DNA of 64,000 nt from Gemmatimonadota bacterium (lineage in GTDB: Bacteria > Gemmatimonadota > Gemmatimonadetes > Gemmatimonadales > GWC2-71-9). Under the pieces are notes generated by a model. That model saw nothing but the letters and a program-made list of their open reading frames with translations. It ran no database searches and had not been told where the DNA came from. The translations under genes were made by a program, and so were the position numbers. The stretch covers positions 103,294 to 167,293 of the forward strand of contig PNAE01000006.1 in assembly GCA_003169895.1 (NCBI GenBank), in the 5' to 3' direction. This document shows, piece after piece, positions 49,318 to 64,000 of this stretch (position 1 is the stretch's first letter; the number at the start of each line of letters is the position of its first letter).

Positions 49318-51255
49318 TCAGGTTCGGGGAGTCGCGCGGGTCACCGGTGTTGCCGTCCGGACTTCGTCGAGGCGGGTCAGATACGCATCCACCACGGGAT
49401 CGGTCATGATGTCGTCCAGCAGTCGGCTCATGGGGCGCTGCCAATTCGGGCGCACCGAGGACGATGTCCCGGGGAGATTCACTGCTCGATCCTCGAGCCA
49501 GAGATCCTCGAGCCAGGCGACCACCAGCGGGCTCGCAGACCGGCCAAGCCACTCCAGAAGGTCGGCCAGAAATGCGCGGGGTTCGACTCCGCGGTGACCC
49601 AACCGCCTGGCGAGGCGTCGCACAGCGAGCGAGCGCGCCTTCGCGGCGCCCGCGGCCGCCTCCGTCGCCAGCAGTCCATATCGGATTCGATCGGCGATGT
49701 CGTTGCCGGCGAGCCACCCCGCGAACGTGGGTGTGTCGTGCGTACCAACCATTGCCACGTCGTCGGCTGTCGGAGCGGCAACATCGTCGACCCTCAAAAC
49801 CTCGAACTGCGCGAGGTACATCCCCCAGATTCGATGGCGCGGTAGCGCCGCATCGATTTCGGGAGGAACAGTTCCCAGATTTTCGCCGACGACCTCACAC
49901 CGGTTGCGGTCCGACTCCAGGCACAAGACCGCGAACAGCTCCTCGGCGGGATACGAAACGTAGGTCCCTTCGTGCATTCCGAATCCGTGGGGAATCCAGT
50001 ACAATCGCGTCCACGCCATGATGTGGTCCACGCGAAGCACGCCCGCGAGTCCCGCCTGGAGTGCAATGGATGCGGCCAGGTATCGATGACCCTCGCGGCG
50101 GGACACCTCGGGAAGCACCGGAGCGAAGCCCCAGTCCTGTCCGCTCGGGAAGCCTTTGTCGGGCGGCGCGCCCACCGACATCCCGTCGGCAAAGAGGGTC
50201 TGGCGGGACCACGGGTCGTAACCGTCCGGGTGGACGCCCACCGCCAAGTCGAGCCCCAGGCGAATCCCGTCGTGCTCCAGATGCTGTCGCAAATCGTGGA
50301 GTTGCCGGCGCACCAGCGTCTGGGCCACGAGGTGGAAGCGCTCCACCTCGGCATCGACGTGGTCGGGCGCCAGCGTTCCGGCCCGAGCCTTGGTCGGCCA
50401 GACCCGCCAGTTCCGCCCGAGTCGAGCCTGCGCACCACGGTAACGCGCGTAGCGGACCAGCTCCTCGTCCAGCGACGACGGGTGCGGAGCCGGGTGTCCC
50501 GCCAGCGCCGCACGAACCTCGGCGTCTGCCCGGGTTACGTCCAAGGTGGTGGGGAGGGCCGATGGCCGATGGGCATCCTTCAGATCGAGAATCAGCTCGG
50601 ACCAGAACAGGCGGCTCACCGGGGAGTACGGGCTCGGCTCCGGCGGCTCCGAGTTGAAGGTGGGAAGCAGGGGGAGGACCGTGACCAGATCTCCGCCGCG
50701 ATCGTGCACCCAGCGGCAAAGCGACTGGAGGTCCCGCAGGTCGCCCACGGAACGGCTGCGCGCCGAGCGGAGGGCGGCGAGTTGCGTGCTGACCCCCCAG
50801 CTCCGATGCGACCCTGGCCGACGCCAGGCTCTTGCCGGCGCGGCGATGATTGTGCACGCCTCCCGCCGGCCGTCGCCTTCGACCGTGAGGCGGTGGTAGC
50901 CGAACGGAAGCGGCCGCGTCGCTCGAAACTCCGCGCCGACACTCTCAAGCGGGACAACTGCTCCGTCGGCGAGATGCAGCTCGGCGTGTTTGGGGCCTCG
51001 ACCGGAGATCGCGAGGTGCGGCAGCGCACCTTCCCAGGCGACGAGGACGGGCGGCAGAAATCGGGTGTTCCTGGCTGCGCGGTGCGCTTGCAATGCTGCG
51101 GCGGCATCACTGGGGCTGGCGATGGGGGCTCCCAGCGCGGCGCAGACCCGCACCAACGTCTCCGGGCCGACCGCGACACGCTTGCCAAGGCCGTCGGTAT
51201 AGCGGGTGTGGACACCCATCGCCTTGGCGAGAGATCGCAGGGCCGTCAGCGTCAT
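49318..51255 (-). CDS. malQ: 4-alpha-glucanotransferase (GH77, amylomaltase)
   Basis: SPYSPVSRLF, DLAVG, GAPPD, GQDWG, LRVDH, GENLG, GTHDTPT and NLPGT motifs. Confidence 0.92.
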   Translation of the reverse strand: MTLTALRSLAKAMGVHTRYTDGLGKRVAVGPETLVRVCAALGAPIASPSDAAAALQAHRAARNTRFLPPVLVAWEGALPHLAISGRGPKHAELHLADGAVVPLESVGAEFRATRPLPFGYHRLTVEGDGRREACTIIAAPARAWRRPGSHRSWGVSTQLAALRSARSRSVGDLRDLQSLCRWVHDRGGDLVTVLPLLPTFNSEPPEPSPYSPVSRLFWSELILDLKDAHRPSALPTTLDVTRADAEVRAALAGHPAPHPSSLDEELVRYARYRGAQARLGRNWRVWPTKARAGTLAPDHVDAEVERFHLVAQTLVRRQLHDLRQHLEHDGIRLGLDLAVGVHPDGYDPWSRQTLFADGMSVGAPPDKGFPSGQDWGFAPVLPEVSRREGHRYLAASIALQAGLAGVLRVDHIMAWTRLYWIPHGFGMHEGTYVSYPAEELFAVLCLESDRNRCEVVGENLGTVPPEIDAALPRHRIWGMYLAQFEVLRVDDVAAPTADDVAMVGTHDTPTFAGWLAGNDIADRIRYGLLATEAAAGAAKARSLAVRRLARRLGHRGVEPRAFLADLLEWLGRSASPLVVAWLEDLWLEDRAVNLPGTSSSVRPNWQRPMSRLLDDIMTDPVVDAYLTRLDEVRTATPVTRATPRT

Positions 51256-53300
51256 CCCGCGGGACGGATTCGGATCGCTTGACCACCGCCGGGCGCCAGG
51301 ACGAGGCGCAGTCGCGTAGCGGAGGTCACCGTGCGCCGCGTGATGGTGACCGGCAGGGGATTGGTCAGCCAGTGCGCGTTCGGGCCGTCAGCGTAGATCT
51401 CGGCCACGTAGCGCCGGCCCGGCGTCAGGAACGAGAGCGGAACGTCCAGCGTGCGGCCTTGCTCGTCCGTGATGGCGCCCACGAACCAGGTTTCGCCGCC
51501 GCGCACCCGGCGCGCGACCGCCACATAGTCGCCAATCCGGCCATCGAGCACGCGCGTCGTGTCCCAGTCCACGGCGACGTCGCGGATGAACTGGAACGCG
51601 GGCTGCCGCTCATAGTTCTCGGGGAGATCGGCCGCCATCTGGAGCGGCGAGTAGATCACCACGTACAGGGCGAGTTGCTTCGCCAGCGTGGTGCGCACGC
51701 GCGGCTCGTCTGGGCGGCGTGGCCGTCCGGTGCCCCGTTCGAGCAGGAGGTCGAAGATCCCGGGCGTGAAGTCCATCGGCCCGGCCAGCAGGCGCGTGAA
51801 GAAGAGGATAGTCTCATGCTCCGGCGGGTTGCCGCCATCGCCGCTCCACGCGTTGTACTCCTGTCCCCGCGCGCCTTCGCGGCTCATCATGTTCGGATAG
51901 GTGCGGCGCTCGCCGGTGTCATGCATGGGCTCGTGGGCATCGAGCATGATGCTGTCGCGCGCAGCCAGCTCGATCACGCGACGGTAGTGCTGCACCATGT
52001 ACTGTGAGTAGTGCGAGTCGCCCGCGCTGGTCAGGTCGGTTACGTAGCCGGACTTGATCGCATGAAGGCCGAGCGACCGGTACAAGACGAAGGCACTGTC
52101 CATCTGCCGCTCGTAGTTCTCGATCCCGCCCGACGTCTCGTTGTGCATGATGAGCCGCACGCCCTTCTGCCTGGCGTACGCGGCGACCGCCGCGAGATCG
52201 TAGTCGGGATAGGCCTGGGTGAAGGAGAACGCGTTGCGGTTGGCGATCCAGTCGCCGTCCCAGCCAACATTCCATCCCTCGACCAGCACGCCGCCGAAGC
52301 CGTTCGCCGCGGCGAAGTCGATGTACCGCTCCGCGTTCGCCGTTGTCGCCCCGTGCTTCGGTCCGGAGCTCCAGGTCATCGTGCCGATGTGCATGCCCCA
52401 CCAGATGCCCACGTATTTCATGGGATGGATCCAGTCCGTGCTGGCCAGGGCGTTCGGCGGGTTGAGGTTGAGGCCGAGCACCGAGGGCGCAAGGTCGGTG
52501 GCGCGGTCGGCCAGCTGGATCGTCCGCCACGGCGTCACGAACGGGGTGCGGCCGCGCACCTTGATCCCGTCCGCCAGCGGCGCCAGTGCCGCGTGCAGCG
52601 TGCGGCCCTCCATGCGCGGCCCCCGCAGGAACATCCTCGCGTAGTCGACGAGGTTCGCCTCGTGGATGACCATGAAGGTGCGGCCGTCCCGCGTCTCCAT
52701 CGTGAGCGGTGTCTGCACGCTGTCCAGCGTACTCACCGGTCCCGACGAATACAGTTCCTCGGAGCGGTCCTTGCGCGGCCAGTTGGACGGGATCCACCAC
52801 GCGCGTGCATTGTCCGCCAAGGCAAACTCGGTGAGTTCATCCGTGATCTCGAATGCGCCGAGGCCTGCCTGCGAAGGAAACTCGTACCGGAAGCCCACGC
52901 CGTCGTCGAACGCGCGCGCCCGCACGGTAAACCGTCGGTTCGGGGCCGCCATCTCCTCCACGGAGACGGCCAACTCGTTGTTGTGGTCGTGCACGCGCGC
53001 CACCTCGCCCCACGGCTGGGTCCACCATTCGTCATATGACTGCCGGGTGGTGTCGGTAATGCGCAGCCCGTCGCGGAGCGGCGGCGCCCCCCGGAACTCG
53101 AAGCCGAGCAGCGAGGGAAGAATCAGCGCGCGATCGTCGCGTGCCAGGCTGTAGTACAGCTTGCCCTCGCGGACGTCGACGGTGACCTCGTTGCGGCCGT
53201 CCGGTGAGGCGACGCGGACCTGGCCCCGAAGCGGGCCTGTGATCGCCGCGAGGGTGACTGCGGCGAGGCAGGACACGAGGGCGCGGGTGTGGCGAAGCAT
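51252..53300 (-). CDS. GH97 alpha-glucosidase (SusB-like)
   Basis: KYVGIWWGMH, LVEGWN, HNETSG, DAHEP, REGARGQEY, GPMDFTPG and SPLQMAAD motifs; signal peptide. Confidence 0.92.
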   Translation of the reverse strand: MLRHTRALVSCLAAVTLAAITGPLRGQVRVASPDGRNEVTVDVREGKLYYSLARDDRALILPSLLGFEFRGAPPLRDGLRITDTTRQSYDEWWTQPWGEVARVHDHNNELAVSVEEMAAPNRRFTVRARAFDDGVGFRYEFPSQAGLGAFEITDELTEFALADNARAWWIPSNWPRKDRSEELYSSGPVSTLDSVQTPLTMETRDGRTFMVIHEANLVDYARMFLRGPRMEGRTLHAALAPLADGIKVRGRTPFVTPWRTIQLADRATDLAPSVLGLNLNPPNALASTDWIHPMKYVGIWWGMHIGTMTWSSGPKHGATTANAERYIDFAAANGFGGVLVEGWNVGWDGDWIANRNAFSFTQAYPDYDLAAVAAYARQKGVRLIMHNETSGGIENYERQMDSAFVLYRSLGLHAIKSGYVTDLTSAGDSHYSQYMVQHYRRVIELAARDSIMLDAHEPMHDTGERRTYPNMMSREGARGQEYNAWSGDGGNPPEHETILFFTRLLAGPMDFTPGIFDLLLERGTGRPRRPDEPRVRTTLAKQLALYVVIYSPLQMAADLPENYERQPAFQFIRDVAVDWDTTRVLDGRIGDYVAVARRVRGGETWFVGAITDEQGRTLDVPLSFLTPGRRYVAEIYADGPNAHWLTNPLPVTITRRTVTSATRLRLVLAPGGGQAIRIRPAG

Positions 53301-53449
53301 GGCGAAATAGTAGGACGGCGGCCGCCCTTCGGCCACCGCGGGCCGGGCAAGCTGGCGCGCGCGCTGCCGGGTCGGCATCATTGGATGCGGTACCGAGCGT
53401 GCCCCCTGGTGGCGTACCGCGGCGAAGCGTCGCACGAAGGGAGGGGAAA

Positions 53450-53842
53450 ATGCATAGCGTAAGGCGGGTCCTCATTGTGGGGCTGCTCGCAGCGGGCTCC
53501 GCGTGCGCGCGCAGCCGCGGCGCGGCCACCGACTCCGGCGGACCGCAGCCGACGGAGCGGCCCGTCCGCGTGCACGTCATCAACCACTACAAGGAAGCCA
53601 TGGAGATCCTCGTCACCGGAGCTGGGACCACCCAGCGGCTGGGATTGGTGGCTGTCGGGATCGAGCGGGATTTCGTGCTCCCCCAGACCCTGGTCGGCAG
53701 CGGCTCGGTGGCGTTCGTGGCCCAACCCAGCGGCTTCGGGTCGATCGTCCGGTCCGACGAGGTCAGGATCAGGCCCGGTGACGTCGTGGACTTCGAGATC
53801 GCGACCAACCTGATCGGCAGCCGAGCCACCGTGCGATTGTGA
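53450..53842 (+). CDS. Putative lipoprotein
   Basis: GAGGGG before ATG 53450; RRVLIVGLLAAGSAC lipobox-like signal; beta-rich body. Confidence 0.7.
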   Translation: MHSVRRVLIVGLLAAGSACARSRGAATDSGGPQPTERPVRVHVINHYKEAMEILVTGAGTTQRLGLVAVGIERDFVLPQTLVGSGSVAFVAQPSGFGSIVRSDEVRIRPGDVVDFEIATNLIGSRATVRL

Positions 53843-54301
53843 CCGCCACCGCCTGCCGGTTCACGGCGGCGGCGCGCCCCGAACGCTCGGCACCACCCAC
53901 CGTCGCCTTGTATCTCTGAATCTGCGGCGGCTTCGGCGCGCCGGTTGGAGGGGCCCTCGCTTCCGTGCACGCCGACTGTGGGCCTTCGCGGTCCATGAAC
54001 GCTCCGCTGGCTAACTGTTGTTGATGAAGACGTTGTTCACTGATGCCCGGCAAGTCGCTGCATGGGAGTCAGGACTCGTCCACCATTGTGGAGTCAGGGA
54101 GGCACGACATGAACAGACGTCGCCCGCTGCAGGGCTTCTCGTCATCGGGCAGGGCGCGCTTAGCGCCCAGGCGCCGCGACCACCGGTCCGAATGTGGTCG
54201 GTGAGCGTCGCCGGAGGGTGCCCTGTGTTCGCCCACGGTCCTACTGACGATACGCCGACGCACGTTATTCCTCTCCGGCTCCGCGCCGTCTCACGGCCTG
54301 C

Positions 54302-54330
54302 TTGACAAAGAATGAAAAGAATGATAAGAA
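54302..54330 (+). promoter_or_regulatory. Probable sigma70 promoter of the cytochrome-porin/oxidase operon
   Basis: Perfect TTGACA, 17-nt spacer and TG-n-TAAGAA in an AT-rich patch. Confidence 0.5.
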
Positions 54331-54420
54331 ACATTGTCTGCGTCTCAAGCAATTGGCCAAAAAGGGTTTGGCCGCATTTTCGTGGTCGCATCTGGCCACG
54401 CGGGTATTAGTTAGCACCTG

Positions 54421-55977
54421 ATGTATCATCCCGAACCACCGGACCCAGGAGGCGGCATGATCGACTGGTCTGTGAAGCGCAGGGGCGGTTGCAGATGGGT
54501 CTGGAGCAGTGCACTGGTGCTTTGCGGTGGTCTCAGTGTCGGATTGGTTTCGCCGGCGGCGGCGATAGCTCGTTCCGACAGCTCCACCAATGTGACGGCA
54601 GTGAACCGCTCCGGAAATCGAGACCGTGCGAAATGGGAAGCGTACATCCTGGCCGCCGGCGGGGTGCTACCTGCCAGCGCAGGGTTGACCCTCGCGGCCC
54701 ACAAGACGGCCGCGATCCCCGCCTTCGCGAGAAAATACAACCTGCCGTGTTCGGCCTGCCACACCACCTGGCCCGAGCTCAACAGCTTCGGCCAGAGATT
54801 CAAAGACCGGGGCTATCAGCTCGGCAACGATCGCGATTCCCCCATCTGGGTCAACCCCTCCTATATCCCCATCGCGATCCGCACCACCCCGGGGTGGCGT
54901 ATGGAGCAGACGACCCACCAGCCGGTGGACGTCGTGCCGGGGGATGGCGCCAGTGGGACCGTGGAGCGGACTATCACCCAGTCCGGTTTCGACATCTCTG
55001 GCGCCGACCTGTTGATGCTGGGGACACTTTACAAGAACATCACCTTCGGGTTCGTCCCCACGATCGCCGACGGCGAAGGAGTGGGGATTGAAACCGCCTT
55101 CGTCCGCTTCGACAACCTGCGCCGGTCGGGTTGGGCTAACCTGAAGGTCGGCAAATTCGAGCTGGACAACATGCTCTCCGAGAAGCGGAGCATGATGCTT
55201 TCCAACAATGGCACCTTCTACCAGAGCTATCATTTCGTGCCGGTGGGGGATGTAACCAATTTCGGGATGGGCGACAACCAGATTGGTGCCGAATGGATGG
55301 GCCATTCGGACAACAGCTACACTCGCTTCAGCGTTGCCGTTCTGAGCAGCGTCGACGGCACGCCCGGTCTCCCCTCCGGCAAGAGCTATGACGGCGCATT
55401 CACCGTGAGCCAGGGCTTCGACGTCGGCAATCTCGGACTCCAGCGAGTGGGCCTGTACGGCTTCATGGGCCGCCGCCCCACCGTCTTCGAGACAACCGGC
55501 GGCACGCCAATTCCCGGCACCGGGACCGGCAATAAATCGTTCTATCGCTTTGGGGCTGTGGGCGATTTCTTCCTAGGCAAGCTCGAGTTCCTCCCACTGG
55601 TCATGCGTGCCTCGGACAACAAGGACCTCGCGGGTGGGACCCGGGATGCCACCTGGAACAGCGGGCTCCTCGAGCTGCACTACTACGTCAATCCCCAGCT
55701 GGTCTTTACCCAGCGGAGCGAGATCATCCGGATGTCGAACCAGGCGGATCCCGCAACGCCGAAGACGCTCGGAAACATCGATGCCTTCACGTTCGGCTAT
55801 CGCTGGTATCCGATCATGTTCAGCCGGGCGGGGCTCGCGCTGGTGGGCGAGCTGTCCTTCACCAAGACGATCGGCACCGTGCCCTTGAGCGGGGACGGTG
55901 TAGGGTTCGCCCCGCTCACGAGCGCCACAGCGGTACGGAGCACCAGCCTGCTCCTCGCACTCGACTTCGCATTCTGA
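54421..55977 (+). CDS. Cyc2-like fused monoheme cytochrome c / outer-membrane beta-barrel
   Basis: AIPAFARKYNLPCSACHTTWPELNSFGQRFK matches the Cyc2 signature AxPxFAR[QK][TY]-CxxCH-PxL. Beta-strand-rich body; terminal Phe (ALDFAF) beta-signal. Start uncertain (54421 or 54457). Confidence 0.78.
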   Translation: MYHPEPPDPGGGMIDWSVKRRGGCRWVWSSALVLCGGLSVGLVSPAAAIARSDSSTNVTAVNRSGNRDRAKWEAYILAAGGVLPASAGLTLAAHKTAAIPAFARKYNLPCSACHTTWPELNSFGQRFKDRGYQLGNDRDSPIWVNPSYIPIAIRTTPGWRMEQTTHQPVDVVPGDGASGTVERTITQSGFDISGADLLMLGTLYKNITFGFVPTIADGEGVGIETAFVRFDNLRRSGWANLKVGKFELDNMLSEKRSMMLSNNGTFYQSYHFVPVGDVTNFGMGDNQIGAEWMGHSDNSYTRFSVAVLSSVDGTPGLPSGKSYDGAFTVSQGFDVGNLGLQRVGLYGFMGRRPTVFETTGGTPIPGTGTGNKSFYRFGAVGDFFLGKLEFLPLVMRASDNKDLAGGTRDATWNSGLLELHYYVNPQLVFTQRSEIIRMSNQADPATPKTLGNIDAFTFGYRWYPIMFSRAGLALVGELSFTKTIGTVPLSGDGVGFAPLTSATAVRSTSLLLALDFAF

Positions 55978-55991
55978 TCAGGAGGCCTCGA

Positions 55992-56840
55992 ATGAGTCGG
56001 ATCCCCTTGCTGGCCTGCGCTGCCGAGTTCGGCTTGCTGTTGTCCGCCACCGGCCTCCTCGCGGCCCAGGCTCAGACCATGTCCCGCATCGGAAACGTCA
56101 CTGGCAATGCCGATGCGGGCAAACGGGAATACCGGCGGTACTGCGTCGGTTGTCACGGTCCCGCGGGTGACGGGTTGGGCGAGAATGCCCAGTGGATCGA
56201 TCCCAAACCCAGGGATTTCACCGCCGCCGTCTTCAAGTGCCGGTCGACTCCCACCGGAAGCCTACCGACGGACGAGGACCTGTTCCACTCCGTTTCCCGG
56301 GGAGTCGTGACCACCAACATGCCGTCCTGGGAGCCGCTCACCCGGCAGGCCCGGGCGAACGTGGTGGCCTACATCAAGACCTTCTCGTCGCGGTGGGCTA
56401 CGCAAGGACCGGGGACCCCGATCACCATTCCGGCGGAAACGCCCGCGAACATCGAGAGCATTCTCCGCGGAAGAGACGTCTTTCAGAAGATGGAATGCTG
56501 GAAGTGCCATGGACCCGCGGGCCACGGCGATGGTCCGGCTGCTTCCACGCTCACCGACAGCAAGGACAACCCGATCCGGCCGTACAATTTCTCCACTGGC
56601 TCCCGCTTCAAATGCGGCGAGACCAATGCGGATGTCTACCGCATCTTCATGACCGGACTCGACGGCACCCCGATGCCTTCTTTCGCCGATCTCATGCAGC
56701 CGAACGACGCCTGGGATCTGGTGCACTTTCTCCGGACCCTGCAACCCCTCCAGACGCCTGAGGCCGCGATCTGGCAGACCTGGCTCCCGGCCCACGCGAA
56801 AGAGCTCAAGCCGCTCGGTCCGGATCAGGGAGGACGTTAG
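55992..56840 (+). CDS. Periplasmic diheme cytochrome c
   Basis: Signal peptide; CVGCH and CWKCH, each followed by PxxF and a distal MPS (Met ligand). Confidence 0.92.
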   Translation: MSRIPLLACAAEFGLLLSATGLLAAQAQTMSRIGNVTGNADAGKREYRRYCVGCHGPAGDGLGENAQWIDPKPRDFTAAVFKCRSTPTGSLPTDEDLFHSVSRGVVTTNMPSWEPLTRQARANVVAYIKTFSSRWATQGPGTPITIPAETPANIESILRGRDVFQKMECWKCHGPAGHGDGPAASTLTDSKDNPIRPYNFSTGSRFKCGETNADVYRIFMTGLDGTPMPSFADLMQPNDAWDLVHFLRTLQPLQTPEAAIWQTWLPAHAKELKPLGPDQGGR

Positions 56841-56875
56841 TTTACCAGACTCACACTGAGAGAGACGGTACAACG

Positions 56876-57595
56876 ATGCGAACGAGATTGATCACCTCAC
56901 TTCCCCTGCTGGCCTTGGCCGTGTCGGCGATGGGCGCGCTGTCGGCGCCGGTGAAGACCGCCGGCGGGGTCAGCGGCACCATCACCTTTACCGGCACGCC
57001 ACCGCGGATGCGGCCGATCGACATGTCGAAGGAGCCTAGCTGCGCCAGCCAGCACCCGACCCCGGTGATGACCGAGACCGTGATGGCCGGTGCCGGCAAC
57101 ACGGTCCAGAACGTGGTCGTGTACATCTCGGCCGGGGACCAGGCCGGCGCGGCGGCTGCCCAGCCGGTCCGGTACGATCAGAAGGGCTGCCAGTATGTCC
57201 CTCACGTTCTCGTCATGCAGGTGGGCCAGCCGCTGGAGATCTATAACAACGACCAGACGTCGCACAACATTCATCCACTGGCGACCATTAACCCGGAGTG
57301 GAACAAGTCTCAGCCGCCAGGGACACCGCCGATCAAGGCGACTTATGCGAAGCCCGAGTTCATCACGGTCAAGTGCAACGTCCATCCCTGGATGCATGGC
57401 TACTTCGCCGTGCTCGCCACCTCCCATTACGCGATATCGGGCAACGACGGGAAGTTCAGTCTTGCCGGCCTGGCGCCGGGGAAGTACACGATCACCGCGT
57501 GGCATGAGAAGTTTGGCACGCAGAGCCAGGAGGTTACGGTGAGCGCCAGCGGAACCGTCACGGCGAATTTCGTATTCAAGGCGCTGCCGTATTGA
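56876..57595 (+). CDS. Periplasmic cupredoxin-motif protein with carboxypeptidase-regulatory-like beta domains
   Basis: Signal peptide; HNIH and CNVHPWM (amicyanin-like C-x2-H-x2-M type-1 Cu loop); GKYTITAWHE. Confidence 0.75.
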   Translation: MRTRLITSLPLLALAVSAMGALSAPVKTAGGVSGTITFTGTPPRMRPIDMSKEPSCASQHPTPVMTETVMAGAGNTVQNVVVYISAGDQAGAAAAQPVRYDQKGCQYVPHVLVMQVGQPLEIYNNDQTSHNIHPLATINPEWNKSQPPGTPPIKATYAKPEFITVKCNVHPWMHGYFAVLATSHYAISGNDGKFSLAGLAPGKYTITAWHEKFGTQSQEVTVSASGTVTANFVFKALPY

Positions 57596-57678
57596 GGTGG
57601 CACCCGCAGGGCCCCGCATCGGCTCCTTAGGCACCGCAGCGGATTTCACCGCCACGTCAGTAGGGGAGGCAAAGCCCG

Positions 57679-58476
57679 GTGGGCAGACTGTTTGCAGTTG
57701 TTCTTGCGGTCATCACCATTGTCTCGGCCGCCATCTTCATCGCCCGCATCTGGTGGCTCCCGCCCGACATCTCGGTGCTCGGGGTCGGCATCGACCATCA
57801 GATGACGGAGACGATGATCGCGTCCGGCGTGCTGTTCGTCGTCTGCCAGCTGGTCCTGGCCATGTTTGTCTGGCAATATGGCGACGCAGGGGATGCGCGG
57901 CCGATCAAGACTTTTCCCGGTGGGGCCACGCCGATGGTGGTGATCGCCACCATACTGGTCAGTGCCGAGATTCTGGTGTTGACGCTGGTTGGGACCAAGG
58001 TCTGGGGCGGGATCTTCCTTTCGCCGCCGGACCCAAGCGCGCTTCACATCGACGTCCAGGCTGAACAGTTCGCTTATTATTTCCGGTACCCGGGGCCGGA
58101 TGGCAAGTTCGGGGCGATACATCCGGAACTGATCGACGACGGCAACGGCAACTTTTTTGGCCTCGATCCCGCGAACGACACCGCAGCGCGGGACGACATC
58201 GTCTCGGCATCGCTGGTCATCCCTGTCAACAAGCCAATCCTGCTCACCCTGCATTCCAAGGATGTAGGGCACGCCTTCTACGTGCCCGAGCTGCGAATCC
58301 AGCAGGACTTCGTACCCGGCTTGGTGATTCCCCTCCACTTCACCGCGACCCGGCTGGCGAAAGAGGAGATCGTGTGCACCCAGCTCTGCGGGCTGGGCCA
58401 CTACAACATGCGGGCGTATCTCGAGGTAGAGTCCCTAGGTCAGTTCCAGCAGTGGCTCAAGGACCATGCACCATAG
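57679..58476 (+). CDS. coxB: Heme-copper oxidase subunit II (CuA)
   Basis: TM helices; DVGHAF, QDFVPG and CTQLCGLGHYNM motifs; no fused cytochrome c. Confidence 0.92.
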   Translation: MGRLFAVVLAVITIVSAAIFIARIWWLPPDISVLGVGIDHQMTETMIASGVLFVVCQLVLAMFVWQYGDAGDARPIKTFPGGATPMVVIATILVSAEILVLTLVGTKVWGGIFLSPPDPSALHIDVQAEQFAYYFRYPGPDGKFGAIHPELIDDGNGNFFGLDPANDTAARDDIVSASLVIPVNKPILLTLHSKDVGHAFYVPELRIQQDFVPGLVIPLHFTATRLAKEEIVCTQLCGLGHYNMRAYLEVESLGQFQQWLKDHAP

Positions 58477-58506
58477 TTCCTCTATTTCTCGAAGGGTTCA
58501 AGACAC

Positions 58507-60315
58507 ATGCATGACACTTCGGCCCCATCCGTAGCCGCTCGCGGAGAACCCTTGGAGACGACCGCCACCTCGCACCACGCCCCGCCTCAGGGATTTCTCC
58601 GCAAGTACGTCTTCAGCCTGGACCACAAGGTGATCGGGAAGCAGTACCTCGACCTGGCGCTGGTCGCGGTGGTGATCGGGATGGTCCTTTCTTGGCTGAT
58701 GCGCTTCCATCTGGGATTTCCCACGACCGCCGTTCCGGGGTTGGGGAAACTGGCGCCAACAGCGGCGGCGGGTGGCGTCATCACTCCCGAGCTCTATCTC
58801 GCGCTGATGACCATGCATGGTACGATCATGGTTTTCTTCGTGTTGACCACCGCCCCCTTCGCCGGTTTTGGCAACTTCGTGCTGCCCATCCAGGTGGGCG
58901 CGGAAGACATGGCGTTTCCCCGCTTCAACATGATGTCCTTCTGGGTGACCTTCGTGGCGTTCCTGGTGCTGGTCGCCGCGTTCTTCGTGCCGGAAGGGCC
59001 GCCGATCTCGGGGTGGACGGCCTATGCGCCGCTCAGCGCTATCGGCAAGGATGCGGGGCCGGGACTGGGCACCGGCCAGACGCTTTGGGCGGTCTCGATC
59101 GCGCTCTTCTGTGTCGGCCAGCTGCTGGGCGCGCTCAACTTCATCGCAACCACGCTCGACCTTCGCACCAAGGGCATGACGCTGATGCGCATGCCGCTGT
59201 CCACCTGGGCCTGGTTCATCACCTCGGTGATCGGTCTTATCGCGTTCTCGGTGCTGCTCCCCGCTTGCATCCTGCTCATTCTCGACCGGGTGGCGGGGAC
59301 AAGCTTCTTCATTCCCGGGGGACTGGTCGTCAGCGACCGGTTGCAGCCACACTCCGGTGGTTCCCCGCTGCTGTGGCAGCATCTGTTCTGGTTCTTCGGG
59401 CATCCGGAGGTGTACATCGCGATCCTGCCGGGCTTCGGCATTGTCTCCCACATCCTGCCGGTCTTCGCGCGGAAACCGCTGCTCGGCCCCAAGGTTGTGC
59501 TGATCTGCCTGATCGCGATTGCCTTCCTGAGCTACACGGTGTGGGGCCACCACATGTTCCTGAGCGGAATGAACCCGCTCTCCGCGACGCTGTTCTCCGT
59601 CCCGACCCTGGTCATCACCATCCCGGCCACTATCGTGGTGCTGCTGTGGATCGGCACGGTGTACGGCGCCCGCATGCGCTTCACGACCCCGGCACTGTTC
59701 TGTCTCGGATTCATCTCGGTGTTCGTGAGCGGCGGCATCAGCGGCTTTTTCCTGGCCCAGCCGTCCATCGATACCTATCTCCATGGCACCTACTTTGTGG
59801 TGGGACATTTCCATTTCGTGATGGGGGTTGCGGCGATGTTCGGCATCTTCGCCGGCGTCTACTTCTGGTTCCCCAAGATGTACGGCCGGATGATGAACGA
59901 TAAGCTCGGCAAGCTGCACTTTACCCTGACGCTGATTGGGGTCTACTGCGTCTTCATGCCGATGCATTATCTCGGTCTCGCCGGCAACGTGCGCCGGTAC
60001 TCCACGTTTACTGACGATTACATGAAAGGGTCATTGCCCCTCCACCGTTTCATCACCATCGCGGCGCTCTTCACCGGCGCTGTGCAACTGATCTTCTTCT
60101 ACAACCTGATCCATAGCCGCCTTCGTGGAGCGAAGGCGCCCGACAATCCCTGGCAGGCGACCTCGCTCGAATGGTCGACCAGTTCGCCGCCGCCCTTCGA
60201 CAACTTCGGCGGGCATCACCCGGTGGTGACGCACGGCCCCAACGAGTACGGAGTGAAGGGCCCCACGGGCGACTACATCATGCAAGCCTCTAGCGATCAG
60301 CCGGTGACGTCCTGA
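58507..60315 (+). CDS. coxA: Heme-copper oxidase subunit I, A1-type motif
   Basis: DHKVIG, MHGTIM, EDMAFPRFN, FWFFGHPEVY, WGHHMF, GHFH and RRY motifs: all six His ligands and the cross-linked Tyr. Confidence 0.96.
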   Translation: MHDTSAPSVAARGEPLETTATSHHAPPQGFLRKYVFSLDHKVIGKQYLDLALVAVVIGMVLSWLMRFHLGFPTTAVPGLGKLAPTAAAGGVITPELYLALMTMHGTIMVFFVLTTAPFAGFGNFVLPIQVGAEDMAFPRFNMMSFWVTFVAFLVLVAAFFVPEGPPISGWTAYAPLSAIGKDAGPGLGTGQTLWAVSIALFCVGQLLGALNFIATTLDLRTKGMTLMRMPLSTWAWFITSVIGLIAFSVLLPACILLILDRVAGTSFFIPGGLVVSDRLQPHSGGSPLLWQHLFWFFGHPEVYIAILPGFGIVSHILPVFARKPLLGPKVVLICLIAIAFLSYTVWGHHMFLSGMNPLSATLFSVPTLVITIPATIVVLLWIGTVYGARMRFTTPALFCLGFISVFVSGGISGFFLAQPSIDTYLHGTYFVVGHFHFVMGVAAMFGIFAGVYFWFPKMYGRMMNDKLGKLHFTLTLIGVYCVFMPMHYLGLAGNVRRYSTFTDDYMKGSLPLHRFITIAALFTGAVQLIFFYNLIHSRLRGAKAPDNPWQATSLEWSTSSPPPFDNFGGHHPVVTHGPNEYGVKGPTGDYIMQASSDQPVTS

Positions 60316-60316
60316 C

Positions 60317-60853
60317 ATGGAAACCATGAAGATGACCGCGCCCGCCTCGCCGGCGCGGACTGGCGTCTGGGTCGGTATTGCGACCATCACGATGTCTTTC
60401 GCCGCGTACACCAGCGCTCTCCTGGTGCGGCAAGGCGCCGGGTCGGACTGGCAGCATTTCCGGCTGCCATCGATTCTCTATTTCAATACGGTATTGCTGC
60501 TGGTGAGCAGCGGGACCATCGAGCTGGGTCGGAGGCGGGGATACGCCTGGCTGATCTTCACGCTGGGACTGGGATTGCTATTCATCGCGGGACAGGTTCT
60601 CGCCTGGCGGAACCTTGCGGCCCAGGGCCTCTTCCTCGCCACCAACCCCAGCAGTTCCTTCTTCTATGTGTTTACCGTGCTCCATGCGCTGCACCTGCTC
60701 GGCGGGATTGTGGCCCTGGGATACGTTCTTGTCCGCTTGCGCGCGCCGACCGGCGGACCACCGCTGACCGCGCTAGGCGCTGTATCGCTCTACTGGCATT
60801 TCATGGACGTCCTCTGGCTCTATCTGCTGGTGATTCTCGCACTGCGGCTGTAG
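60317..60853 (+). CDS. coxC: Heme-copper oxidase subunit III (first paralog)
   Basis: NTVLLLVSS, FFYVFTVLHALHLLGG and YWHFMDVLW motifs. Confidence 0.88.
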   Translation: METMKMTAPASPARTGVWVGIATITMSFAAYTSALLVRQGAGSDWQHFRLPSILYFNTVLLLVSSGTIELGRRRGYAWLIFTLGLGLLFIAGQVLAWRNLAAQGLFLATNPSSSFFYVFTVLHALHLLGGIVALGYVLVRLRAPTGGPPLTALGAVSLYWHFMDVLWLYLLVILALRL

Positions 60854-60871
60854 CCTGCCGCCGGAGGTGAC

Positions 60872-61501
60872 GTGAGCGAACTCGAAATGCCCATGGCCCT
60901 GGGACATGGAGCGGCGCTGGAGGAATCGCCGTTCGGCATCGAGTCCAAGAAGCTGGTGATGTGGCTGTTCATCGTTGCCGATGCGGCCACCTTCGGCGCG
61001 CTCCTGTTCTGTTACGGGTACCTGCGGGTCGCGAGCGCGAACTGGGTTAAGCCATTCGCCTTTTTCCCGACCATCCTCAACGGCGTGATCATGACCGCGG
61101 TTCTGCTGACCAGCAGCCTCACCATGCTGATGGCCGTCGGGACTGCGCAGTCCGGGCGGCGGGCGGCGAGCGTCCGGTGGCTTGGCGCAACCGCGCTGCT
61201 CGGAATCGTGTTCGCGTCGCTCCACCTGCGAGAATGGTTCAGCCTGATTGCCGAAGGGTGGAGCCCCTCGACCAACCCAATGGGCGGATCCGTCCTCTTC
61301 GGCGGGACTTTCTTCGGCATCACCGGCCTCCACCTGCTGCACGTCATTTGCGGGGTGGTCGCCATTGCGGTCATCGCCATTGGGTTCAGGCGCGGTCGCC
61401 TGGACGCCCGGCACGTGGAGATCACGGGACTCTACTGGCACTTCGTCGATCTGGTGTGGATGTTCGTATTCCCCCTCGTGTACCTGATGAATGTTCGCTG
61501 A
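60872..61501 (+). CDS. coxC: Heme-copper oxidase subunit III (second paralog)
   Basis: KLVMWLFIVADAATF, LLTSSLTM, ITGLHLLHV and GLYWHFVDLVW motifs. Confidence 0.9.
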   Translation: MSELEMPMALGHGAALEESPFGIESKKLVMWLFIVADAATFGALLFCYGYLRVASANWVKPFAFFPTILNGVIMTAVLLTSSLTMLMAVGTAQSGRRAASVRWLGATALLGIVFASLHLREWFSLIAEGWSPSTNPMGGSVLFGGTFFGITGLHLLHVICGVVAIAVIAIGFRRGRLDARHVEITGLYWHFVDLVWMFVFPLVYLMNVR

Positions 61502-61526
61502 GGCTCTCGCGGTGAAAGGCTCGCAC

Positions 61527-61832
61527 ATGGCTACGATGGAATCGACACCCGGCCCCCGAACGAAGGTGTACGTCGCGGTATGGATCAGTCTGCTTCTCAT
61601 CGTGGCCGCGGAGGTGGCGTTGACGTACGCCCGACTTCCGGCGGGGACTCTGCTGGCGGCGTTGCTCGTCCTGGCGATTCTGGAAGCGGCACTGGGCCTG
61701 ATGTATTTCATGCACCTCAAGTACGAGCGGCGGATTTTGTTCTGGGCCCTGATACCGGCACTGATTTTCGTGTTTTTCTTGATGAACCATTTCTGGTCGG
61801 ACGCGCTGCGTCTCCATTCCATGCATCCATGA
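61527..61832 (+). CDS. Heme-copper oxidase subunit IV (CtaF/CoxD-like)
   Basis: Three TM helices; YFMHLKYE motif. Confidence 0.88.
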   Translation: MATMESTPGPRTKVYVAVWISLLLIVAAEVALTYARLPAGTLLAALLVLAILEAALGLMYFMHLKYERRILFWALIPALIFVFFLMNHFWSDALRLHSMHP

Positions 61833-61889
61833 CCGATCCCGATTGTGGCGCTAACCGGGCGGCGCGACCGTCATTGGGAGTGAGATAAC

Positions 61890-62027
61890 GTGCCGATGCC
61901 GATGGGACTCCCCTCCGTGCACGCCATGCTGCCGGCCATGGTGGTCATGGTGATACCGGCGTTTCTCGTCTGCGCCGGGATTGCGGTGATGGCGTACCGA
62001 AGGCGCGACACGTCCTCGGAGGAGTGA
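61890..62027 (+). CDS. Small single-TM protein (45 aa), probable oxidase-operon accessory
   Basis: GGAG 9 nt before GTG; MPMPMGLPSVHAMLPAMVVMVIPAFLVCAGIAVMAYRRRDTSSEE (hydrophobic helix then YRRR). Not in the ORF track. Confidence 0.55.
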   Translation: MPMPMGLPSVHAMLPAMVVMVIPAFLVCAGIAVMAYRRRDTSSEE

Positions 62028-62156
62028 AGCCGGTTCAACGTGGCGTGAAGTGTCGCGCCCTACTTCCACGCCCTCGATTGGATTTCCTATCACGTAAAGC
62101 ACCGTTTTCGCTTGCCAATGGCACCTGTTCACGCGACCATTAGGTGTCCTCACCCT

Positions 62157-62665
<509 letters not shown>

Positions 62666-62667
<2 letters not shown>

Positions 62668-64000
62668 AACGCTTCGGCGGCACGACCGCGCGGCCGAAGC
62701 CCATGGCGATCCACTCCACCTCCACACCGTAACTGCCCGGCGTGACGGCGACACCTTCCGCGCGCCGCAGCGAAAGCTGCAGGCGCTCCAGCCGGTCGAG
62801 CCGCGGGTGGTCAGCGCTTCCGCCGCGACCGGCCGCGGGTCCCACCCCGTAGTTCCACTCACCGGGGAACCCCTCCGGGAGCAGCACGCCGCGCGCCGAA
62901 GTGAAGGCCGAGAGCGGCAGCGACGGCTCGCTCCAAGCGCTGTCCACGAGGACCGCCGCGCTCCAGCTCGTGCCATCGTCCTCCATCAGCGTGACGTGCA
63001 GGATCTGGTGAGGTCCGAGGCCGCGAAGGCGTACGTGCAATGCATCCGCGCCACCAATCGTCTCCTTCCGGTCCCTGATCCGGTCCATGATCACCAGCGA
63101 TGCCGTGTAGTCGGCCGGTCCCGTGCCGCTTGGGTTCACGGGCAGCTCGAAGTGGAAGACCGGCTGGCCCGTGACCCCGGAGAAGGCCACGCGAAAGAGC
63201 CCGCGGCGCCCCGCGTCGCCGATGCGGCTGAAGGCCAGGCGCGCGGCGTCCGCGCCGGGGGTGAACAGCCGCAGCGGCGTCTGCGAGCCGACCACATTCA
63301 GCGCCCAGGACGCGCGGCCGTAATAGTCCCAGTCCCATGGCTTCCGGTGCAGGCCGCCGGGAAACGTGGTCGCCGAGTCCCCGCGGAAGAGCGTGATCAC
63401 GAACTCGTTCGGCCCCTCCTGCAGCGCGGCCGCCGGAACGACGGCGGCATACTCGTAACCGCCGGCGGATCGCATCGCGAAGCCGCGGTAGAAGCCTCCG
63501 GCCGTCGGCCGGATAAAGAGCGTGGCTGAGTCGGGCGGCGTTGGTTCGACCACGCGGGCCCGCAGTTCGGCGCCCTGCCCCGCGAGGTATTCGGGTGCGG
63601 CCAGCGACTGGACCGACGGCGGCAAGGAATCGAGTGGAGGCGCGTGATATTCCGCGAAGCCTAAAGCGCCCAGGTGTGCCGGCAGTGTGGCAACGTCCAC
63701 GGGCCCGGCGGCGCTCAGAACGTAGACACCGGGCGTGACGGTGAAACGGCCGGCGGTTGCCCGCTCGTTCCGCGGGTTGCCCGCCGCTATCGGTTGCGCG
63801 GTGAAAGAGGGGCCGAGGTCCGGCAGAGCGATTGTCATGGGCCAGGCACGGCTGATCGCGCGCGTCACGATCTTGTCGCGGCTGGGCGGCTCGAAGGGGT
63901 CGCGGACGGGCACGGCGTCGGGGTAGACCTCGAGGCGCCAAACACCCGGGCGCACCTTGTCCAGGAAGTAGATCCCCTGCCCTTCGTACGTCACCGTGGG
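62666..64000 (-). CDS. C-terminal part of a large secreted glycoside-hydrolase-like protein (5' end outside the window)
   Basis: YEGQGIYFLDKVRPGVWRLEVYPDAV...DPF pattern and CBM-like C-terminus; co-oriented with GH97-malQ-MFS. Confidence 0.6.

Follow-up and report, generated by a model that had tools for sequence, protein, structure and literature searches.

The closest described parallels to the locus considered here include the rus operon, with a published order of cyc2-cyc1-cup-coxBACD (PMC10654088), and the wider Cyc2 family of outer-membrane cytochromes. The criteria for the latter in PMC8406198 comprise a signal peptide, one CXXCH, AXPXFAR[Q/K][T/Y] just before it and PXL four residues after it, together with a length of at least 365 aa and a fused barrel of ~16 strands resembling OprO/OprP. 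Oxidation of Fe(II) is common to all members of the Cyc2 family that have been tested to date (PMC8406198, PMC13647500). The locus in question is an operon of nine same-strand genes at 54421-62027 (+) in a 64,000-nucleotide stretch of a Gemmatimonadota genome (GCA_003169895.1, contig PNAE01000006.1; this whole stretch is the window, to whose coordinates all bare positions refer). It encodes a Cyc2-like porin-cytochrome, a dihaem cytochrome c, a copper protein and an aa3-type oxidase (Table 1) and lies on an island bounded by the two ends of an insertion sequence (IS). On balance, we consider it probable that these genes form a module, inherited as a unit, which would pass electrons to O2 from a donor dissolved outside the cell, with Fe(II) as the likeliest candidate, and would supplement heterotrophy.

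By all the sequence and fold criteria that could be checked, the predicted product of the first gene is a member of the Cyc2 family, in keeping with the signature picked out by a first-pass annotation made from the nucleotide letters. It carries the block AIPAFARKY-NLP-CSACH-TTW-PEL and ends in ...LDFAF, i.e., with a terminal Phe; its single CXXCH (CSACH) occupies residues 110-114 of the 518-aa open reading frame (ORF), and there is no second CXXCH. Three residues separate AIPAFARKY from CSACH, where PMC8406198 counts '5 amino acids upstream', and the spacing is the same in a Caballeronia plasmid homologue and in the second Cyc2-family copy of the genome. Across an alignment of 48 homologues (27-86% identity), the motif residues P, F, R, C, C, H and P are the same in 48/48, and in H-TTW-PEL, the counterpart of PXL, the P is invariant and the L nearly so. 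The length is 506-518 aa as against the published minimum of 365 aa, the lower figure following from a start called at M13 (54457) in a 99% identical protein (P0001). At the N-terminus, a basic stretch, a hydrophobic stretch and AIA can be made out by eye, and the model places a helix at 14-35. The AlphaFold2 model, built on the 48-homologue alignment (mean predicted local distance difference test [pLDDT] 80.2, predicted template-modelling score [pTM] 0.75), has 16 strand elements in residues 139-505 of the 506-aa form, with low confidence over the first 89 residues. Searched with Foldseek, this model matched 229 PDB chains at E<=0.001; outer-membrane porins fill the top rows, and the matches include OprP (2o4v, 7.2e-11) and OprO (4rjw, 1.7e-9), the same templates that PMC8406198 names. 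Of the barrel with a putative N-terminal haem plug that was expected at first pass, the structure prediction returned the barrel, of ~16 strands.

The protein has no family match in Pfam or NCBIfam, and its relatives extend over a wide range of divergence, with 2273 representatives (clustered at 50%) at E<=0.001, 433 at 1e-10 and 118 at 1e-30. A second word-index search, with the most distant full-length match (P0245), gave 17 proteins, of which the one named is from a Nitrospiria metagenome-assembled genome (MAG). The 30 nearest clusters in the ESM Atlas are most commonly from Acidobacteriota; the nearest one with a family has PF07396 (Porin_O_P) in 20% of its members (score 0.97), which is a lead only. 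When the family profile was compared by hhalign with the Cyc2-like 'cytochrome C' of the Caballeronia plasmid, the two aligned with 98.5% probability in the cytochrome domain only, and a plasmid search with the porin likewise returned nine records (Ralstonia 6, Caballeronia 2, Methylocystis 1) that match in that domain only. Such alignments fit the remark in PMC8406198 that the porin part is poorly conserved. In PMC9769843, Cyc2 clusters I and II held only homologues from DTB120, Nitrospinota, Bacteroidota and Methylomonadaceae, which by elimination makes cluster 3 the probable place of those from Gemmatimonadota and Acidobacteriota.

The same genome has a second Cyc2-family gene at C2:26945-28336 (+), the 463-aa product of which displays PGFARQT, CSACH, PGL and a terminal Phe. 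This product shares 41% identity with the Caballeronia plasmid protein over 447 aa and is similar to the window porin in the cytochrome domain only (45% over 56 aa). The gene is adjoined by those for a histidine kinase (C2:24835-26091) and an OmpR-type response regulator (C2:26149-26832), and by a minus-strand gene (C2:28803-30260) whose 485-aa product has numerous CXXCH motifs. On plasmid pSBC1_3 of Caballeronia sp. SBC1 (L085:2948-5965), the Cyc2-like gene stands between genes for a high-potential iron-sulfur protein and a c-type cytochrome; its annotated start at 4082 drops the signal peptide and the Cyc2 motif, both of which are present in-frame upstream.

The two genes that follow encode candidate periplasmic carriers, both apparently of high-potential types—a class I c-type dihaem cytochrome on one hand and a predicted cupredoxin with H, C, H and M ligands on the other. 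In phmmer searches against all of the PDB, the dihaem protein matches 6h5l_B, a Kuenenia 'conserved hypothetical cytochrome protein', with an alignment of 210 residues (E 1.4e-57) that takes in both haem sites; the best c4-type entry (8uf3_A) comes only at E 0.25, and no Acidithiobacillus cytochrome is found at E<=1. The NCBIfam family for cytochrome 579 (NF033864) does not include it, the score being 47 bits where the cut-off is 280. The third gene product is best classed as a type-1 copper cupredoxin from its predicted fold and its His, Cys, His and Met ligands: H130/H133, C167, H170 and M173 are invariant in 27/27 aligned homologues, lying in SHNIH and in the loop C-N-V-H-P-W-M with its C-x2-H-x2-M spacing. 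With Foldseek, the best matches to its model (pLDDT 78.9) are amicyanin, plastocyanins and CuA domains (E 2e-3 to 1e-2, TMt 0.45-0.61), and VIA-align pairs it at Z 11.7 with the transthyretin-like domain of carboxypeptidase D via residues 30-40 and 180-237. These two results together suggest a cupredoxin inserted into a transthyretin-like domain. The latter domain filled the list of the wide VIA search, which gave no independent cupredoxin score. Comparisons at the sequence level brought no cupredoxin at E<=10 with phmmer against all of the PDB, only weak profile matches there (type-1 Cu protein 5fc9_A at E 0.16 and amicyanin at 0.32, in a range of 0.16-0.42) with no rusticyanin among them, and no Pfam cupredoxin family at E<=0.01, Pfam and NCBIfam giving the C-terminal CarboxypepD_reg alone. 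All this fits the initial suggestion that the two carriers are analogues of Cyc1 and Cup/rusticyanin and not clear orthologues of them.

A paralogue of the copper protein is encoded in the same genome at C8:1683457-1683999 (30% identity over 198 aa), and a similar cupredoxin-plus-transthyretin-like protein occurs upstream in a few Acidobacteriota loci (e.g., L034:5612-6460), so that this architecture may represent a wider family.

The oxidase genes are more readily classified. CoxB has the CuA motif C-x3-C-x3-H-x2-M and no CXXCH, and its nearest PDB relatives are subunit II of the Rhodobacter and Paracoccus aa3 enzymes. CoxA carries the helix-VI motif GHPEVY, with CTQLCGLGHYNM likewise read from the oxidase sequence, and its COX1 domain (PF00115) scores 445 bits against a cut-off of 34.8. 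The closest solved relatives of the whole are bacterial aa3 cytochrome c oxidases, and the enzyme can be assigned to the A-type aa3 cytochrome c oxidases, with the limit that haem a and haem o are not told apart by sequence. The host genome comprises 3.42 Mb in 13 contigs, with 98.24% completeness and 0.1% contamination; its contig C8 encodes another full COX1 (552 bits; 40% identical to the window CoxA). The oxidase in question, at C8:375195-379018 (-), comprises a CoxB of 428 aa with a C-terminal CIGCH domain, a CoxA of 625 aa and one CoxC of 206 aa; its long subunit II with a C-terminal CXXCH domain marks it as a caa3 enzyme. Given that the window CoxB is without haem c and that the genome has this caa3 oxidase of its own, the oxidase of the operon can be seen as an extra one that would depend on separate carriers. 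Two more COX1-like matches in the genome are weak (C2:48518, 33 bits; C8:1744917, 31.5 bits).

The arrangement of these genes is not due to chance. It was followed through 80 related loci—30 with Gemmatimonadota-type titles, 48 titled as Acidobacteriota (including 'Ca. Acidiferrales' and Terriglobales), one as Bacillota and one as a proteobacterium—with a gene taken as present at >=40% identity on the same strand. The dihaem gene follows the porin gene in 79 of the 80; the copper protein is present in 76, coxB in 68, coxA in 67, the second coxC in 58, coxD in 55 and the first coxC in 47. All eight larger genes occur in 45/80 loci, in every one of these colinear within 9 kb and in both phyla, so that the search for synteny across Gemmatimonadota and Acidobacteriota, recommended at first pass, confirmed the arrangement. 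In most of the other 35 loci the gaps are contig ends, and some Acidobacteriota loci have a single coxC. The closest loci are titled Gemmatimonadales and the genome itself groups within Gemmatimonadota, which bears out the 'probable Gemmatimonadota' of the initial reading.

Inheritance as a unit is also seen among the 201 Gemmatimonadota genomes that were sampled. Of these, 24, the host's own included, have an orthologue of the porin (E<=1e-40): 20/95 others in the host family, 3/38 in a second family and 0/67 in ten further families, with absence from 7/7 other species of the host genus in the sample. Dihaem orthologues (>=65% identity, E<=2.3e-126) and coxB orthologues (>=65% identity) occur in the same 24 genomes, and among the 177 others there are none of either; for coxB, five of the others have matches of 36-39%. 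Wherever they are on one contig, the three genes adjoin; in one genome (G145), coxB is on a different contig. Thus, in the sampled Gemmatimonadota, porin, dihaem and coxB are strictly co-inherited, and none occurs at the orthologue level without the others.

This distribution bears directly on the idea that cytochrome, cupredoxin and aa3 oxidase are an ordinary branch from the quinone pool through bc1 or alternative complex III, with the porin a mere neighbour of unrelated or outward-directed role. Cupredoxins and dihaem cytochromes do commonly link bc-type complexes to aa3 oxidases, and paralogues of the dihaem domain are found in other contexts in 53 further Gemmatimonadota genomes. Against it, the dihaem and coxB orthologues are confined to the 24 porin-bearing genomes, the porin-dihaem-copper trio persists where cox genes are missing, and the caa3 oxidase has its own cytochrome c domain for the usual chain, all of which makes such a branch quite improbable. 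Identity in the 53 genomes is only 34-48%, and most of the matches fall within longer open frames, of 268-930 aa (e.g., G038:C1:963915-964634), where the dihaem unit seems to be fused to larger proteins; an unpublished genome (G181) is counted both among these 53 and among the 177 without orthologues.

In a FastTree phylogeny of the porin (77 of the 80 loci, three with a match <400 aa being left out, plus the window and six outgroup proteins), the operon-linked porins form one clade with support of 100, and the Acidobacteriota form one clade (98) nested among Gemmatimonadota lineages. As the tree is rooted on long branches, with long-branch warnings, the direction of transfer that it implies is a lead only. 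The loci titled 'Bacillota bacterium' (L012) and 'uncultured proteobacterium' (L076) nest inside the Gemmatimonadota and Acidobacteriota clades, reflecting either mis-binning or recent transfer. Among the Acidobacteriota loci, 23 have an OmpR-type response regulator and 20 a sensor kinase ~0.3-1.8 kb past the operon (e.g., L076:19220-20233, L072:17643-19400), and on the upstream side two divergent, conserved genes of unknown function occur in 35 and 34 loci; the window copy has none of these four beside it.

As for the working of the module, we infer which donor feeds it, in which direction electrons flow, in what order the carriers act and that energy is conserved. The Cyc2-family monohaem cytochrome, fused to its 16-strand outer-membrane barrel, would take an electron at the cell surface; the periplasm would be crossed by the dihaem cytochrome c, the type-1 copper cupredoxin or both; and the dedicated aa3 oxidase (CoxBA, two CoxC, CoxD and a small membrane protein) would receive electrons at CuA, reduce O2 and conserve energy. 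The rus-like gene order, the co-inheritance of porin, dihaem and coxB and the separate caa3 enzyme favour a single dedicated chain from the outer membrane to O2. The module would add lithoheterotrophy to a heterotrophic life at the oxic-anoxic interfaces of peat or soil, a habitat in keeping with the peat, soil and permafrost labels of metagenome runs in which near-identical DNA occurs: supplementation is suggested by the caa3 oxidase and by the failure to find the RuBisCO large subunit, the sole carbon-fixation marker searched, in the 98%-complete genome. A carbohydrate-using host would also fit the genes to the left of the island, at 49318-53435 (-), which are a 645-aa ORF and a GH97 glycoside hydrolase (PF10566, 1e-103); the former was read from its own sequence as a putative 4-alpha-glucanotransferase (MalQ).

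Several observations pull the other way. Outside the cytochrome domain, the barrel has no detectable sequence similarity to Burkholderiales-type Cyc2 homologues, and the function of cluster 3 is called the most uncertain in PMC8406198. Seven loci, all from Acidobacteriota, have >=7.9 kb of downstream sequence without cox genes, so that the oxidase is not obligatory for the module; six of these keep the porin-dihaem-copper trio and fall in one clade of the tree, and the seventh (L059) has only a divergent copper gene. On the favourable side, contigs from an RNA-library run (X20) that cover the dihaem gene (4 differences in 243 nt) and coxB (1 in 251 nt, twice) give no more than a hint of expression, as they are possibly DNA carry-over; another RNA run (X21) gave nothing that could be placed on the window, which speaks neither for nor against. 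The outer-membrane-to-O2 wire envisaged at first pass stands in its anatomy and its rus parallel, and the co-inheritance and the separate caa3 enzyme favour it; Fe(II) is its likeliest donor.

The same wiring might instead serve another donor—reduced humic quinones, Mn(II), Cu(I) or electrons taken up from minerals—which we regard as rather unlikely. Homologues of the cluster-3 type are functionally uncertain (PMC8406198) and include relatives of an electrode oxidiser (PMC9769843). The clade is also far from every tested Cyc2, with only the cytochrome domain aligning to other Cyc2-like proteins. Runs labelled as peat and permafrost contain the DNA, and such soils are rich in reduced organic matter. 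Against Mn(II) in particular, its oxidation to Mn(III/IV) needs a higher potential than c-type haem usually offers. Also to be set against another donor are the uniform record of the tested family members, on which the case for Fe(II) as the likeliest donor is built (PMC8406198, PMC13647500), and the prediction in PMC8406198 that a monohaem porin-cytochrome handles dissolved Fe2+ and not solids.

A different purpose for the same chain would be protection, the module clearing Fe(II) and O2 at the cell surface against Fenton chemistry with little or no contribution to growth. The host looks heterotrophic, with no RuBisCO found and glycoside hydrolase genes adjoining the island, it already has a caa3 oxidase, and the module is patchy and dispensable (24/201 genomes, 0/7 others in the genus). 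However, energy would be conserved by a full A-type oxidase with GHPEVY and subunits III and IV no matter what end it serves, and the retention of nine colinear genes across two phyla suggests a benefit beyond detoxification alone; we rate protection as improbable.

The genomic setting suggests how such a module might travel. The operon lies within an island of 8,759 bp (53907-62665), the edges of which derive from an IS110-family element that is intact on contig C9, where the transposase reading frame is uninterrupted. The first bases of that element are matched in 20/20 nt at 53907-53926, and its last ~422 nt are 88% identical to 62244-62665, with similarity extending 14 nt into the flank; thus, the island carries two ends of one IS. 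Where the intact element has some 700 nt of interior sequence, with the catalytic N-terminal portion of the transposase, the island has 8.3 kb holding the operon, and only the C-terminal 118 aa of the transposase are left. Having lost its catalytic domain and kept only the Transposase_20 part, the window copy is a remnant and cannot move by itself. IS110-family elements recombine via a guide RNA at a CT core, and each side of the joint has a CT (53907-53908, 62666-62667).

The empty site is itself on record: a single 251-nt contig of the RNA-library run X20, of depth 5.4, joins 53906 directly to 62666 with 124 nt on each side and four differences per side. There is, then, a close relative without the whole 8,759-bp segment, and the operon has probably been acquired recently in the host genome. 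A second joint in X20, from 53373 to 62954 with 32 unrelated letters between (depth 3), may come from a further rearranged relative. Genomes of the same genus are too diverged to offer an empty site, the left flank being matched in 1/5 (73% identity, with a 25-nt match in a second) and the right flank in 0/5. Either of two histories could have led to this arrangement, the IS bringing the operon as cargo or the operon inserting into a resident IS. The island has a guanine-plus-cytosine (GC) content of 0.625 versus 0.669 in the flanks and a genome mean of 0.658 (standard deviation 0.017); 60/1660 same-size windows of the genome are as low, so this weak support for a foreign origin is not relied on.

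A bolder version of the preferred reading, which we put forward only tentatively and rate as doubtful, sees in the nine genes a portable plug-in chain that would let heterotrophs abundant in soil (Gemmatimonadales and Acidobacteriota) respire extracellular Fe(II) with O2, that has crossed between phyla and that here was the cargo of an IS110 element. On this reading, the design of the operon would be convergent with that of the rus operon, having arisen with carriers unrelated to those of the latter.

Could the island be an artefact, an assembly chimera or a contaminant contig in the bin? Its low GC relative to the flanks and the IS fragment at its edge might be taken that way, as might the lack of a tblastn match in any of the 80 loci for the flanking genes (MalQ, GH97, a 153-aa ORF, the transposase fragment and a 442-aa ORF). 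Yet the genome is nearly free of contamination, both island ends match one IS with an intact copy elsewhere in it, the low GC is shared by the same-size windows noted above and the closest relatives of the operon are Gemmatimonadales. In metagenomes, 12/21 listed runs, labelled as peat, soil and permafrost, hold at least half of the sampled words; six hold 98-100% of them, though the source samples themselves may be among these six. Contigs from an independent soil study (X7), each with 1-15 differences, cover 54280-56596, 56706-57176, 57603-58521, 58566-59120, 59458-61459 and 61432-61964, and bridge porin-dihaem, copper-coxB-coxA, coxA-coxC-coxC and coxC-coxD-downstream. An artefact is therefore hardly credible, and the mis-assembled contaminant, named at first pass as a way for the proposal to fail, finds no support in the word content of the runs or in the bridging contigs.

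Within the operon, the intergenic gaps in gene order are 14, 35, 83, 30, 1 and 18 nt, followed by an 11-nt overlap. Six of the proteins are named by Pfam or NCBIfam (dihaem, COX2, COX1, two COX3-like and COX4_pro), and ORF reading together with these domains places every gene listed in the first-pass annotation on the + strand at the positions it gave. The end that it set for the run, 62027, is the stop codon of a ninth gene (61890-62027) that it left unnamed. This gene, encoding 45 aa, is found by tblastn (E<0.01) directly past coxD in 41/80 related loci from both phyla, with nucleotide similarity of 73-78% in 10 loci.

The leader ahead of the operon has no conserved ORF, and blastn against the 80 loci showed no similarity, the sole match lying in the cyc2-like coding part. 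A stretch of 57 nt within it (54016-54072) is 89% identical to C7:1929-1985 of the same genome. On the coding strand, a hairpin at 54354-54374 with a T-rich tail stands 47 nt ahead of the first ATG of the porin gene; it could be a stop for read-through from outside the island or have a regulatory role. A search upstream of the operon gave no + strand sigma-70-like site and one site overall against 1.5 expected, and is uninformative for this phylum.

Table 1. Features of the island and its operon, in window coordinates
Feature	Position	Strand	Basis or remark
IS110-family left end, 20 nt	53907..53926	.	island left boundary; 20/20 nt identical to start of intact copy
Non-coding leader	53927..54420	+	terminator-like hairpin 54354-54374
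Predicted Cyc2-family fused monohaem cytochrome-porin	54421..55977	+	518-aa ORF; likely start 54457, 506 aa
Periplasmic dihaem cytochrome c (Kustc0457-like)	55992..56840	+	PF13442 6.2e-20, PF00034 7.5e-20
Predicted type-1-copper cupredoxin inserted in transthyretin-like (CarboxypepD_reg) domain, signal peptide	56876..57595	+	PF13620, residues 182-233
coxB, subunit II, CuA site, without c-haem domain	57679..58476	+	PF00116, TIGR02866
coxA, predicted A-type haem-copper oxidase subunit I	58507..60315	+	PF00115 445 bits, TIGR02891 572 bits
coxC copy 1, subunit III-like, 178 aa	60317..60853	+	PF00510
coxC copy 2, subunit III-like, 209 aa	60872..61501	+	PF00510; TIGR02842-like score 96.6 bits
coxD, subunit IV	61491..61832	+	PF03626 (COX4_pro)
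Conserved 45-aa single-helix membrane protein	61890..62027	+	ORF translation and tblastn
IS110-family 3' remnant, Transposase_20 fragment ORF 62294-62650	62244..62665	+	PF02371 66.7 bits; island right boundary

Cyc2 homologues as such are not new to these phyla. They have been reported in putatively heterotrophic Gemmatimonadota and Acidobacteriota MAGs (PMC9769843), are 'widely annotated' in marine Gemmatimonadota (PMC11316326) and occur in some MAGs of five major phyla in Antarctic soil (bioRxiv 10.1101/2020.08.06.239558). In the accessible part of PMC8239418, which deals with rus oxidase genes, Acidobacteria and Gemmatimonadetes appear only in a table of haem A synthase types. A search of the literature, with subscription journals and supplements excluded, returned no description of the operon, its carriers, its co-inheritance or its IS setting in the texts covered.

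Few phyla are as abundant in soil as Gemmatimonadota and Acidobacteriota, and both are treated as organotrophs. If the reading preferred here is true, a part of the Fe(II) oxidation at oxic-anoxic interfaces of peat, permafrost and soil would be done by heterotrophs gaining extra energy; as the iron oxides formed there bind carbon and phosphorus, this would have a bearing on carbon storage in thawing peat. Surveys now score any Cyc2 hit as 'iron oxidation', whereas most homologues have no known function; accompanied by carriers and an oxidase of its own, the present clade offers a defined and testable nine-gene system. The IS-bounded island, in turn, is a concrete case of a whole respiratory operon being moved.

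The likeness to the rus operon lies in an outer-membrane Cyc2-family gene at the head, followed in one orientation by genes for a dihaem cytochrome c, a copper protein and an aa3-type oxidase, coxB-A-C-(C)-D; this is the published order, as had been proposed (PMC10654088). Mobile-element genes at the flanks extend the parallel, PMC10654088 noting transposases beside rus operons. The components differ: the dihaem protein is nearest to Kuenenia 6h5l_B and not to a c4-type protein, the copper protein is a predicted cupredoxin within a transthyretin-like domain, there are two coxC genes and the extra 45-aa gene, there is no ctaA, ctaB or ctaT at the end of the operon, and the host is a probable peat or soil heterotroph and not an acidophilic autotroph. 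No further copper-protein gene, and hence no rusticyanin gene, occurs within 54421-62665; thus, the operon is rus-like in design without being a rus operon.

With the Cyc2 of neutrophilic iron oxidisers, represented by Mariprofundus PV-1 in cluster 1 (PMC8406198, PMC7029218), the porin-cytochrome shares a single CXXCH, AXPXFAR[Q/K][T/Y], PXL and the predicted fused barrel of ~16 strands resembling OprO/OprP, and possibly a signal peptide. It departs from it in a barrel sequence that is unrelated at the sensitivity of these tools, in its probable cluster 3 membership, in an extension of ~85 low-confidence residues ahead of the motif in the Gemmatimonadales forms and in being embedded in an oxidase operon. 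A passage from an outer-membrane Cyc2-family cytochrome to a periplasmic c-type cytochrome would be common to the present system and the cluster 3 pair Cyt572/Cyt579 of Leptospirillum; the dihaem protein matches the cytochrome 579 family weakly, far below the cut-off, and gives no evidence of the unusual haem, and organism and habitat differ. The dihaem protein, for its part, resembles chain B of 6h5l from Kuenenia stuttgartiensis over both haem sites. That chain we take to be the redox partner of an HAO-like octahaem protein, whereas the partners here would be a Cyc2-like porin and an aa3 oxidase. Finally, the island can be laid beside the IS110-family elements themselves: it starts with the first 20 nt of such an element and closes with the final ~422 nt, in which a Transposase_20 fragment is retained, and it differs from them in having exchanged ~700 nt of IS interior for 8.3 kb that carry an entire operon.

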